A DNA stretch of 64,000 nt from contig JBAZJW010000001.1 of assembly GCA_041651055.1 (NCBI GenBank), positions 373,325-437,324 of the forward strand, in the 5' to 3' direction. The DNA is from Minisyncoccota bacterium (GTDB lineage: Bacteria > Patescibacteriota > Minisyncoccia > Phycocordibacterales > UBA5272). Position numbers and translations under genes: made by a program. How positions within the stretch are numbered: position 1 is the stretch's first letter; each line of letters opens with the position of its first letter. The notes under the pieces were generated by a model that saw only the letters and a list, made by a program, of their open reading frames with translations, was not told the DNA's origin and searched no databases. Positions 54,525 to 56,944 of the stretch are shown one piece after another.

Positions 54525-54799
54525 GCAAGAACGGAGAAAGCCGGATCGCAATGACGCGTCCGGCTTTTATATTAGTTTACACTAATACATATCGCAAGTA
54601 TTCAAACTATGAGGGTTCATAATTAAGATACTTCTGATATCTATTAAGGAAAACATCTTTCTACACAAAGACAAGGGTAGGCCACGTTTTTTGTAGTGAT
54701 TGTTTTATACATTACTAACATTGTGCTTTCTATTGATCTTTCTTTTGTCACACTCTAGCGCTTGCGCGACTTTTGTTACATTTCGTAGTAACACGAACT

Positions 54800-56633
54800 G
54801 GTGTTTAAGGATCACCGGTCAAGTCCTCATCTAAAACTTAAATAATCGACAAGATTCGTACACCGTACTAAAACGTATGTAGAACAATTTCACATTGAAT
54901 TAATCCACGACCAGCTTCCGCTAGCCGTGCCTTGTTACGACTTACTCCCTGTCACCGAATTCACCTTAGTCCTAGACTAGCTAAGCCTTTGGGTGCCCCC
55001 GGCTCCCTTGAGTTGACGGGCAGTGAGTACAAGACCTGAGAACGTATTCACCGCGGTTTAGCTGACCCGCGATTACTAGCAATTCCGGCTTCATGTGGTC
55101 GAGTTGCAGACCACAATCTGAACTGGCGCATAGTTTGAAGGATTGGCTCAGGGTTACCCCGTCGCGACCCGTTGTCTATGCGATTGTATTATGTGTGTAG
55201 CCCAGGATGTCAAAGGGACATGCTGACCTGGCGTCATCCTCTCCTTCCTCCCCGTAATTTAATCACAAGAGGCATACTGTATTTTGTAGGAGACCGGTTC
55301 TATAAAATAGAACTGGAGGGTTAGCCCAATGACCGGTGGAAAACCACATTCCCGAAGGAATTTTTTGCTCTCGTTACAAACGATCCCAAACGTCTTGCAA
55401 CATCTGGATTTCCGAGCAGAAACAGTCATAGGGCGTCCCCTACAAAATACACTATGTTCTTCTGAACAAATTACGGGGCAGTCTCTTGTGACACTTGTAA
55501 CACAAGATAAGGGTTGCGTTCGTTACCCCACTGAAGGGAACAGTTCAAACCACGAACTGACGACGGCCATGCATCACCTGTCCACGTGTCTTGCGAGGGC
55601 CATAGTTTCCTTAGGCTTTCACGTGAGTTTCAAATCCTGGTGAGGTTCTTCGTTTACCATCGAATTAAACCACATAATCCACTGCTTGTGCAGGTCCCCG
55701 TCTATTCCTTTGAGTTTTAATCTTGCGATCGTACTTCCCAGGCGGTTCTCTTACCGCGTTAGCTAAGCCACAATGAGGGTCGATACTCATTATAGCGAGA
55801 GAACATCGTTTAGGGCGTGGACTACTGGGGTATCTAATCCCATTCGCTACCCACGCTTTCATATTTCAGTGTCAGTAATGTCCCAGTAAGCTGCCTTCGC
55901 TTTTGGTGTTCCCCATAATATCAACGGATTTCACCCCTACACTATGAGTTCCGCTTACCCCTGACATACTCTAGTCGTACCGTTTCGAATGCTGTCTCCA
56001 TGTTGAGCAAAGAGGTTAGACATTCGACTAATACAACCACCTACATATCCTTTACGCCCAATAATTCCGGATAACGCTTGGGCCACTCGTATTACCGCTG
56101 CTGCTGGCACGAGTTTTGCAGGCCCTTATTCATGGGGTACCGTCAATAAACTTCTTCCCCCATAAAAGATCTTTACATACCGAAGCACTTCATCGATCAC
56201 GCGGCGTCGCTCCATCAGACTTTCGTCCATTGTGGAAGATTCTCGACTGCAGCCACCCGTAGGTGTATGGGCCGTGTCTCAGTCCCATCGGTGGAGGTCA
56301 GGCTCTCACCTCTCCTAAGCGTCATAGCCTTGGTAAGCCATTACCTTACCAACTAGCTGATACTGTTTAAGCCGCTCCCGAAGCGATAAATCTTTAACCT
56401 TGCGGTACTATCACGTATTACTCCACCTTTCGGTGGGCTATTCGTGACTTCGGGGTGCGTTCCTAAATATTACTACCTCGTTTGCCACTAAACTGTCAGT
56501 CTTCCATATCTCACTTACTCTGCTTGTATTGCTACTCACTGAGCTCGATCGATACTTCCGTCTGATTAGTTCCGTTCAACTTGCATGCCTTATCCACGCC
56601 GCCAGCGTTCATCCTGAGCTAGGATCAAACTCT
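54800..56633 (-). rRNA. 16S ribosomal RNA with a ~200-nt internal insertion and an atypical 3' terminus
   Basis: 5' end AGAGTTTGATCCTAGCTCAGGATGAACGCTGGCGGCG (RC at 56600-56633). The 515-region, GGGTTGCGTTCGTT, TGACGGGCAGTGAGTACAAG and AAGTCGTAACAAGG landmarks are all present on the minus strand. The spacing between the 1100 and 1390 landmarks is ~200 nt too long, and the 3' end is ill-defined (GGTGATCCTT at ~54800). Confidence 0.85.
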
Positions 56634-56944
56634 ATTTAATAGAGTGTGACAAAAGAAAAAACAAAAAAATGCACAATGTTTATGTAATGTATTGTGAAGC
56701 GTCACTTCAGTTCTTTTTTATGTTTAGAATTTCTAAAACAAAAAAGGAGCTGAACAGCTTCTATTAAAATTTCAAATGACTACAATTACTGCTCACTGCT
56801 TATGAGTAAGAAGTAGGACTATTCTATACTGTGCAGCACGTAAAGTCAAGCTTCTAATCAACAACACAAGCCATAACAGACAAACTTTTACAATATCCAC
56901 AGATATGCTTGCCATTTAAGGCTATTTTGATTAAACTCGTAGCA

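Follow-up and report, generated by a model that had tools for sequence, protein, structure and literature searches.

A parcubacterial-type 16S rRNA gene with an extended helix 40 and a 3' tail lacking the anti-Shine-Dalgarno sequence

The window analysed here, the whole stretch of 64,000 nucleotides, carries a 16S rRNA gene whose helix 40 is extended at its apex, whose 3' tail has no anti-Shine-Dalgarno (anti-SD) sequence and which is unlinked from any 23S gene. It is very probably the single working 16S gene of a Paceibacteria/Parcubacteria (CPR) bacterium. The explanation that best accounts for all observations, to which we give an even chance, combines a CPR 16S rRNA, a helix-40 outgrowth that would be cut by RNase III, loss of the anti-SD, leaderless initiation and unlinked rRNA genes. 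The insertion, the anti-SD loss and the unlinked rRNA genes have each already been published for CPR/Parcubacteria. Standard 16S primers and length filters miss a gene of this kind or give a distorted picture of it.

The gene and its genomic setting

The first-pass annotation of this DNA had recognized a 16S gene at 54540-56900; the gene is confirmed by cmscan, and its extent is corrected to 56640-54893 on the minus strand, corresponding to 1748 nt compared with the 1533 positions of the RF00177 model (Table 1). The annotation had also ascribed the insertion, the odd 3' end and the unlinked layout to CPR/Patescibacteria. This agrees with the nearest named genomes sharing the identical helix-45 sequence, the tail and inserts at the matching site, which are Parcubacteria/Paceibacterota MAGs, and with the literature, where all three features are reported. 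The clade considered below was gathered by an exact 35-nt helix-45 pattern (at least 120 loci), so that all clade frequencies are conditional on that pattern. A genome scan for insert-bearing 16S genes covered gaps of 205-235 nt and returned seven matches, one of which (L008) was a GC-rich coding false positive.

That the insert or the tail represents a chimeric metagenome join, or the gene a decaying extra copy, has a practically negligible probability. Such an artefact would be compatible with the fact that the sole identical copy found (L001) is the window's own contig, and that an independent Logan contig (L002) stops short of the rRNA. However, two loci from independent metagenomes (L060 and L009) share the basal stem, the tail, the trailer, the leader stem and the promoter, and the tail recurs in 126 loci among the matches listed. 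Moreover, the 16S core is intact, with paired helices and a score of 1308 bits in cmscan, and a single rRNA copy is described as usual in CPR genomes (PMC9297842).

Table 1. Features of the 16S rRNA locus, in coordinates of the window
Feature	Coordinates	Strand	Basis or remark
16S rRNA gene, full length	54893..56640	-	RF00177, 1308 bits, model 1-1533, not truncated
Predicted 16S promoter (TTGACT, 17 nt, TAGAAT)	56821..56849	-	10/12 consensus match
Leader/trailer processing stem, 5' strand (TTTCTTTTGTCACACTCTA)	56640..56658	-	Abuts 16S 5' end; complement, cofold
Helix 6 (V1) extension, GCAA-tetraloop tip (GAGTAGCAATACAAG)	56494..56568	-	75 nt vs 18 in model; cmscan
Insertion of 217 nt in helix 40 apical loop	55255..55471	-	cmscan alignment
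3' tail after helix 45 (GGAUUAAUUCAAUG), without anti-SD CCUCC	54893..54906	-	Sequence compared with relatives
Long 3' precursor trailer with local hairpins	54758..54892	-	Alignment of 8 relatives with compensatory changes; cofold
Leader/trailer processing stem, 3' strand (TAGAGTGTGACAAAAGAAA)	54739..54757	-	Perfect 19-nt complement of leader strand
138-aa ORF between 16S and tRNA-Ile	54108..54524	+	
tRNA-Ile(GAT), followed by terminator hairpin	53607..53680	-	About 1.2 kb downstream of 16S, same strand
murB	53356-52331	-	Past tRNA-Ile

We infer a promoter function for the TTGACT-17 nt-TAGAAT arrangement upstream of the gene, which is conserved in L060. The two strands of the processing stem pair over at least 20 bp in cofold, and most relatives have analogous stems of 13-26 bp located 100-250 nt after helix 45. 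In the proposed precursor, transcribed from its own promoter, a leader/trailer stem of at least 19 bp would enclose the 16S and an unusually long (about 135 nt), hairpin-rich trailer.

No LSU or 5S gene was found by Rfam covariance-model search anywhere in the 64-kb window, and the source contig, followed beyond both window ends, is free of 23S genes for about 16 kb upstream and 59 kb downstream of the 16S gene. The earlier description of a 16S gene unlinked from 23S is thus upheld just outside the window on either side, and the gene order it gave (16S, opposite-strand ORF, tRNA-Ile, murB, no 23S) is found within it. A 23S gene is also absent within 9-14 kb in seven relatives. A crude 23S motif scan of 72 relatives was negative and is backed by Infernal with a positive control, the relative L095, where a 23S-5S pair is present about 6 kb upstream of the 16S gene. 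The 23S and 5S genes would be transcribed elsewhere on the chromosome. Relatives likewise have a tRNA downstream of the 16S gene. The classical 16S-tRNA-23S operon layout is broken by the 138-aa ORF, homologues of which (36% identity) adjoin the 16S gene in L019 and L024, and which has a weak PHROG match and no more.

The helix-40 extension and its variation among relatives

The insertion occupies 217 nt where the model has 3, at about position 1160, in the hairpin at model 1148-1175 that corresponds to helix 40. The entire extended hairpin (55252-55476, between GACTGCC and GGAGGAAGG) measures 225 nt compared with 10 nt in insert-less relatives. The first-pass annotation had announced an insertion of ~200 nt at ~55300-55510, to be delimited by covariance-model alignment; that alignment shows an insertion and not a contiguous canonical 16S, with coordinates shifted by about 40 nt (55471..55255). 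The insert folds as a coaxial extension of helix 40 (MFE -104.9 kcal/mol, z = -10.4), with a 12-bp helix at its base that is common to the clade.

The insertion was also said to contain no ORF, and this stands. It harbors neither a homing endonuclease nor an annotated ORF; its largest ORF (56 codons, no Pfam match) is treated as spurious because it has no family, no homologue and spans several predicted hairpins, and a 104-aa ORF on the plus strand is antisense to conserved rRNA. In addition, a gene of the IVS-protein family (2587-2952) is free-standing in this genome, outside the insert. Known introns were also searched for: no group I or group II core (RF00028, RF00029) was detected at the gathering threshold, and the insert alone matched no Rfam family and no intron model even at E<=10, so that a group I/II intron was rejected. 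A dispersed mobile element was rejected as well, given that no further copy of the insert is present in the window or in ~849 kb of loci, and that the hairpin module of sister lineages (see below) is confined to the helix-40 site.

Among the matches listed, about 40 clade members have a helix-40 site of 10 nt and 33 others have one of 39-225 nt; these lengths form a graded continuum (10, 39-59, 71, 89-93, 108-151, 192 and 207-225 nt). The basal 12 bp are paired in 95.5% of cells, compared with 65.9% in shuffled alignments and no more than 65.6% when the register is slid. Changes on both sides are seen in 10 of the 12 pairs, indicating covariation. The 16S genes of the window, L060 and L009 are 98.3-98.9% identical, yet the interiors of their extensions (225, 147 and 219 nt, respectively) are unrelated. 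In a sister subfamily the extension consists of one, two or three tandem hairpin modules, which occur solely at this site, and loop motifs are conserved in the modules of the relatives (AGUAUUUAUAUU).

The extra ~215 nt would be an outgrowth of helix 40, from the tip of this peripheral hairpin in the 30S head, and not a mobile intron. Its 12-bp base, often about 20 bp, would be maintained in helical form throughout the clade by compensatory substitutions, and the part above it may turn over rapidly as local duplication, slippage and replacement take place. Helix 6, an anomaly smaller than the helix-40 insert and not mentioned in the first-pass annotation, may have grown in the same manner: its lengths in the clade form a continuum of 16-166 nt and its tip motif is conserved. 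Helix 40 is a hot spot whose basal helix is conserved and whose tip has been exchanged in full even among 16S genes that are nearly identical. It therefore lends itself as a natural system to studying how rRNA extensions originate and whether they are excised or kept in bacteria.

The 3' end and translation initiation

Following helix 45, GGAUUAAUUCAAUG (54906..54893) stands in place of GGAUCACCUCCUUA, in agreement with the aberrant 3' terminus noted earlier. CCUCC is present in none of the 126 clade tails among the matches listed, one of which has a degenerate CACCTTCTT, and tail conservation fades about 18 nt past helix 45. The mature 3' end is probably near the canonical position, ending in ...GGAUUAAUUCAA, and the anti-SD would have been lost in the ancestor of the clade.

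It had been pointed out that the nearest match to the expected terminus lies further downstream. GGTGATCCTT is indeed present (about 54816-54807), but as a part of a trailer hairpin (ACCGGTG-loop-CACCAGT, about 54819-54797), next to a covarying hairpin GTTAC...GTAAC at 54793-54774, and it does not represent a displaced terminus or anti-SD. The corresponding reading, in which the mature 16S would reach this CCUU-type element of the trailer, or its AU-rich tail would pair with another mRNA motif, is largely refuted and we consider it highly improbable. It could draw on a UCCUU in the hairpin loop (about 54812-54808), on the AAGGA(G) carried by the few SD-bearing genes of the window and on a 3-fold enrichment of the words TTAAT and TAATC upstream of starts. 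However, the loop varies in the three closest relatives among the matches listed (ATCCTTAAA, ATCCTTTAA and, in L060, ATCCATAA) even though these are 98-99% identical in 16S, and CCTCC, CTCCT and TCCTT have no preferred position in 250 nt of 118 trailers, where no CCUCC/UCCUU is consistently placed. As for an alternative SD pairing with the new tail, motifs complementary to it are not enriched upstream of genes, the AT-rich words do not peak at any position and longer tail complements are absent. The signals found upstream of genes are instead promoter elements placed as for leaderless transcripts.

Of 228 independent clade genes, 25% have a strict -10 box at 5-9 nt from the ATG, with a peak at 6 nt, compared with a background of 2.6%; since each gene was taken to begin at the first start codon in its longest ORF, the leaderless fraction is an approximation. 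Moreover, an extended TGn peaks 10-14 nt from the ATG and 55% of clade genes have a T at position -1. SD-like motifs precede 10% of clade genes compared with 6% in the background, and a minor SD-like peak remains at 7-8 nt, in about 5% of genes. The lack of SD motifs together with -10 boxes 6-7 nt before the ATG indicates that many mRNAs of the clade would be leaderless. Initiation would then occur without SD pairing, many transcripts starting from the A of the AUG. Gene callers that depend on the SD would mis-set start codons in this clade.

Fate of the extension and comparison with known systems

We lean towards excision of the helix-40 extension by RNase III. The extension would be transcribed in the pre-16S and its long near-perfect duplex cut by RNase III without religation, as in classical intervening sequences (IVSs), giving a two-piece 16S joined by the conserved basal helix and the tertiary structure of the ribosome. 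An involvement of RNase III is supported by the perfect leader/trailer stem flanking the 16S, and rnc is kept in at least 90% of CPR genomes (PMC12641178). PMC9297842 (citing Brown 2015) and PMC9698310 report that CPR rRNA insertions are absent from transcripts, and according to a suggestion in Tsurumaki 2024 (PMC11270868), insertions that are short and not introns would be RNase III IVSs. Speaking against excision, the short variants of the site (39-59 nt), with about 18 bp, offer RNase III a marginal substrate, and fragmented 16S rRNAs are rare in bacteria.

Because these short variants carry the same conserved base, they fit a retained helix. The helix-40 extension, together with that of helix 6, may stay in the mature 16S as an expansion segment protruding from the 30S head, with a hypervariable tip tolerated because it points into the solvent; we regard this as a serious possibility, though one with less than an even chance. 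The apical site on a peripheral hairpin, the graded length series, the conserved and covarying base, the growth by tandem modules with conserved loops and the similar behavior of helix 6, with its conserved GNRA tip, all point in this direction. The conserved module loops and the GCAA tip of helix 6 suggest that selection may act on more than mere double-strandedness. Retention is also feasible, since E. coli ribosomes tolerate an h39/h40 insertion (1153-1162) and the doubling time stays normal (PMC2441807). However, a near-perfect duplex of about 45 bp would plainly be a substrate for RNase III in a lineage retaining rnc (PMC12641178), and where CPR rRNA genes have been compared with their transcripts (PMC9297842, PMC9698310), the results indicate that insertions are generally removed. 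That the interior is replaced completely between 16S genes of 98% identity also argues against a role in the ribosome. A joint reading, in which both outgrowths would be retained as fast-evolving expansion segments in an anti-SD-less lineage initiating almost entirely leaderless, appears doubtful. If it were true, a bacterial small subunit would be converging on eukaryote- or archaeon-like features, and the basal helices, as well as the conserved loops of sister lineages, would be binding sites for some partner.

An unrecognised intron, removed with religation of the 16S halves by self-splicing or by a protein-dependent pathway absent from Rfam, is unlikely. CPR 16S genes are described as rich in group I and II introns, with most insertions called introns, and about a third of the 16S insertions are unclassified in the 2024 survey (PMC11270868). 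Against such an intron stand the absence of any model match even at E<=10 and of a homing endonuclease ORF, the location at a hairpin apex and not on a conserved functional strand, and the length of 217 nt, short for a catalytic core. The continuum of lengths and the local module duplication are also unlike homing introns.

The locus can be placed among the systems already described. Insertions in CPR 16S rRNA genes were reported by Brown 2015 (as cited in PMC9297842). In their survey, Tsurumaki et al. 2024 (PMC11270868) number the 16S insertion hot spots 16IS1-10 and distinguish 'uncharacterized' insertions with no intron model and no ORF, mostly under 200-250 bp. The present insertion resembles these in its CPR host, its at least 100 extra nt, its lack of a group I/II signature and of an ORF, and in that it is accompanied by other length anomalies of the gene. 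It differs from these surveys in being assigned specifically to the apex of helix 40, with a covarying base and an interior replaced between 98% identical genes.

RNase III-processed IVSs are typical of bacterial 23S rRNA, and 16S cases are rare. The helix-40 extension shares with them a long stable stem-loop (about 100-250 nt) in place of a hairpin loop, a sporadic occurrence among close relatives and an unconstrained interior, in a group that generally keeps RNase III (PMC12641178); unlike them, it is located outside the classical 23S sites. Rather as in rRNA expansion segments, growth occurs from the tip of a peripheral helix, with an untouched core and graded lengths among relatives, and E. 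coli tolerates an engineered insertion at the adjacent 1153-1162 site (Yokoyama & Suzuki 2008, PMC2441807). In eukaryotes, however, no expansion segment is named for h40 itself, and es9 corresponds to h39 (PMC2441807). The position of the 16S gene matches the unlinked class of Brewer et al. 2019/2020 (bioRxiv 10.1101/705046), defined by more than 1500 bp between 16S and 23S and listing Patescibacteria, and nothing substantive differs.

An anti-SD-less 16S was described in a Parcubacteria subgroup overlapping with uL1 loss, with no initiation mechanism given (Tsurumaki et al. 2022, PMC9297842). The present clade is similar in its parcubacterial affiliation and in a lineage-wide 3' end without CCUCCU, and differs from that account in that anti-SD loss co-occurs with leaderless-type promoter geometry. 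The clear leaderless-promoter geometry of this anti-SD-less clade may provide a mechanistic reading of the point left open in 2022. In the literature that could be searched, no report connecting the loss of the anti-SD with leaderless promoters was found. Initiation dominated by leaderless mRNAs is characteristic of Actinobacteria, Deinococcus-Thermus and many archaea, the work of Cortes et al. in 2013 reportedly being an example. The clade resembles these groups in its -10 box 6-7 nt before the AUG, in Y(-1)R(+1) at the start codon and in its little SD signal. However, Actinobacteria and Deinococcus-Thermus keep the anti-SD and use both modes of initiation, whereas this clade has deleted it.

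The helix-40 extension of the 16S rRNA

The 16S rRNA gene carries about 215 extra nt, which the Infernal alignment explains by two sites, helix 6/V1 and helix 40. The first-pass annotation had reported some 200 nt of extra sequence without an ORF at about 55300-55510. The alignment to the SSU model bears out the insertion, and no credible ORF lies within it, but its coordinates are about 40 nt off those first proposed (see table). The insert is bordered by GACUGCC and GGAGGAAGG and, since GGAGACUGCC corresponds to E. coli 1153-1162 (Yokoyama & Suzuki 2008, PMC2441807), it sits at the helix-40 apex, at approximately E. 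coli 1166-1170.

Coordinates of the 16S rRNA gene, its extensions and processing elements, and of associated protein-coding genes in the window
Feature	Position	Strand	Remarks
16S rRNA gene	56640..54893	minus	Infernal bacterial SSU model 1-1533 complete, 1748 nt, 1308 bits
Helix 6/V1 extension	56568..56494	minus	75 nt vs 18 in model
Helix-40 insert	55471..55255	minus	217 nt vs 3 in model, loop of hairpin model 1148-1175
Leader strand of processing stem	56658-56640	minus	TTTCTTTTGTCACACTCTA, perfect complement of 54757-54739
Trailer strand of processing stem	54757-54739	minus	pairs perfectly with 56658-56640
16S 3' trailer	54758-54892	minus	several local hairpins between 16S and processing stem
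138-aa ORF	54108-54524	plus	between 16S and tRNA-Ile
YbeY	10727-11125	plus	
S1-domain protein	5567-6649	plus	360 aa

In the predicted fold, the insert prolongs helix 40 coaxially (-104.9 kcal/mol, z = -10.4). Rfam gave no match to it, even with the cutoff relaxed to E<=10, and neither the window nor the retrieved loci contain it a second time. Species-representative genomes were scanned for 16S genes whose helix-40 flanks lie 205-235 nt apart, which yielded seven loci, five of them from Parcubacteria/Paceibacterota MAGs. The clade-specific helix-45 sequence retrieved at least 120 metagenomic loci; clade statistics hold for those with the exact 35-nt helix-45 pattern, among the matches listed. 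An identical copy, L001, is the window's own 559-kb metagenome contig (ENA ERZ27247363 k141_1044737) and is no independent confirmation.

Among the matches listed, the helix-40 interflank stretch is 10 nt long (CCCTCACGGG) in about 40 clade loci and longer in 33 (39-59, 71, 89-93, 108-151, 192 or 207-225 nt). All extended members have an uninterrupted basal helix of 12 bp, often reaching about 20 bp, that is built from differing sequences. Of the cells in the basal 12 bp, 95.5% are paired; shuffles give 65.9% and slid registers no more than 65.6%. Both sides change in 10 of the 12 pairs, and a G.U closes the stem in 21 of 28 sequences. Nothing is conserved above it. Outside helices 6 and 40, the window and the related locus L060 are 98.3% identical (25 differences over 1430 positions), but their helix-40 interiors, of 225 and 147 nt, bear no relation to each other; L009 has a third unrelated version (219 nt). 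Helix 6 is likewise variable (16 to 166 nt in the clade), with a conserved GCAA-tetraloop tip in the window. In a sister subfamily (L005, L006, L089, L090, L109 and L012) the extension contains one to three hairpin modules in tandem, each about 60 nt long. Their stems covary and their loop, AGUAUUUAUAUU, is invariant; its exact motif lies at the helix-40 site in 12/12 occurrences, and such conservation suggests a binding partner.

Taken together, the length range of both extensions, the covarying base, the interior turnover and the tandem modules point to peripheral hairpins growing at their tips, through local duplication and replacement, and not to a homing intron. An unrecognised intron is judged very improbable. 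As to its fate, we lean slightly towards IVS-type excision of the insert by RNase III, predicted from its long near-perfect duplex, the retention of rnc by 90% or more of CPR genomes (PMC12641178), second-hand statements in PMC9297842 and PMC9698310 (after Brown et al. 2015) that CPR rRNA insertions are absent from transcripts, and the suggestion of Tsurumaki et al. 2024 (PMC11270868) that short non-intron insertions are IVSs. Retention as an expansion segment, a less probable outcome that we nevertheless take seriously, would agree with the graded helix-40 lengths, short hairpins included, with the conserved base and loops, and with the normal growth of E. coli bearing an insertion at 1153-1162 (PMC2441807). 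A gene of the IVS-protein family is present in the window as a free-standing gene (2587-2952, minus strand), outside the insert.

The decoding centre (about 55030-55052, minus strand) reads GUACUCACUGCCCGUCA. Every CPR locus examined has A1396U, the ones with a canonical tail included. At the normally universal C1400, a U replaces C in the window, as it does in about 15 of some 87 clade loci, and the 530 loop (about 56110) reads GCAGCAGCGG (C to A). A MAG labelled 'uncultured Bdellovibrionales' (L003, CAZGXN010000001.1) has a 209-nt helix-40 insert, A1396U and the helix 45 of the Parcubacteria locus L007; its taxonomic label or binning may be wrong.

The 16S 3' end and translation start signals

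After helix 45 the 16S reads GGAUUAAUUCAAUG in place of GGAUCACCUCCUUA, confirming the suspected aberrant terminus. The same tail, devoid of an anti-Shine-Dalgarno (anti-SD) element, is found in L009, L004, L005 and L006, which rules out an artefact; GGAUCACCUCCUU is kept in two other CPR genomes (L003 and L007). Among the matches listed, CCUCC is present in none of 126 helix-45 clade members and CACCTTCTT in one, the consensus tail being GGAWTAATTCMAWTTG. Its conservation falls to noise about 18 nt past helix 45, so the mature 3' end probably lies near the canonical position. The downstream GGTGATCCTT is indeed present but corresponds to the stem and loop of a trailer hairpin, and is not a displaced anti-SD because the loop sequence varies between the three closest relatives. 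No preferred position of CCTCC, CTCCT or TCCTT was detected in 118 trailers among the matches listed.

Leader and trailer form the usual processing stem, but the trailer it encloses is, at about 135 nt, unusually long; this arrangement recurs in relatives, whose stems lie 100-250 nt past helix 45. Another trailer hairpin, GTTAC/GTAAC, lies in a conserved context (TTCG-stem-TWCGARAY-stem-AAAAGTC) and shows covariation in eight relatives; the long hairpin-rich trailer may represent a processing signal. The window also encodes YbeY, of the 16S 3'-end maturation nuclease family, and an S1-domain protein, both bearing on the maturation and use of an anti-SD-less 16S.

SD-like motifs precede only 4 of 54 long window ORFs; a strict -10 box lies 6-9 nt before the start codon in 12 of the 54, against about 1.2 expected. 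Across a set of 228 independent genes, all from clade loci other than the window, this box peaks 6 nt before ATG and is found in 25% (2.6% in background), and SD-like motifs in 10% (6% in background), fractions that depend on heuristically assigned gene starts. In a set of 270 genes, the ATAAT maximum falls at spacing 6 and that of TGGTA (extended -10) at 10-14; T occupies position -1 in 55%, giving the Y(-1)R(+1) context of start sites. Upstream of genes, no positional peak was seen for words that could pair with the new tail. The simplest reading of this promoter geometry is that leaderless mRNAs are the main substrate of initiation in the clade, in keeping with the loss of the anti-SD. A small SD-like peak (GGAG/GAGG/AGGA) at the canonical spacing, 7-8 nt before start codons, is seen in about 5% of clade genes despite the lack of CCUCC in the 16S; it may stem from genes transferred recently, from chance, or from a purine signal independent of SD pairing.

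Genomic context and comparison with known CPR rRNA genes

Infernal identified no LSU or 5S match in the 64 kb. The absence of a linked 23S, proposed in the first-pass annotation, extends beyond the window ends, with none within about 16 kb upstream (including the densely coding contig stretch L132) or 59 kb downstream (window and contig stretch L130) of the 16S. The downstream order is also as first described: an opposite-strand 138-aa ORF, tRNA-Ile(GAT) and murB. In seven relatives a tRNA follows the 16S with no 23S for 9-14 kb, and the locus L095 harbors a 23S-5S pair about 6 kb upstream of its 16S. The 138-aa ORF, one of few with a strong SD motif (AAGGAG), has no Pfam match and only a weak PHROG match (phrog_18124, E = 7e-4); homologues (36% identity) adjoin the 16S in loci L019 and L024.

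All three tRNA genes of the window (Ile, Val, Glu) lie in odd, related contexts (regions 53381-54100 and 22850-23700). Upstream of tRNA-Ile and tRNA-Val is a 'decoy' version of each gene's 5' acceptor/D-arm (G[YG]GCGGTTAGCTCGAG ... GGTAGA), split by a shared element (84 nt 100% identical, 53958-53875 vs 23203-23120), and at each a 26-31-bp perfect hairpin sequesters the 3' acceptor strand. A direct copy of their own 3' end lies 196-245 nt downstream of tRNA-Ile and tRNA-Glu. These repeats could represent a tRNA-targeting miniature element or a processing/regulatory device.

Insertions of at least 100 nt are reported in 42% of CPR 16S genes, and just 48% of Parcubacteria have a detectable anti-SD, its absence overlapping the uL1-less group (Tsurumaki et al. 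2022, PMC9297842). Tsurumaki et al. 2024 (PMC11270868) distinguish insertion classes, the 'uncharacterized' ones being ORF-less, non-intron and mostly short, and some of these are suggested to be RNase III IVSs. Patescibacteria are among the clades with unlinked rRNA genes (Brewer et al., bioRxiv 10.1101/705046). Insertions and unlinked rRNA genes are thus reported CPR/Patescibacteria features, as the first-pass annotation stated, and the window's insertion, anti-SD loss and unlinked 16S belong to already published kinds. No paper linking anti-SD loss in Parcubacteria to leaderless initiation was found in the searchable literature, and to the known picture the present analysis adds, modestly, this link and an anatomical description of the helix-40 hot spot.
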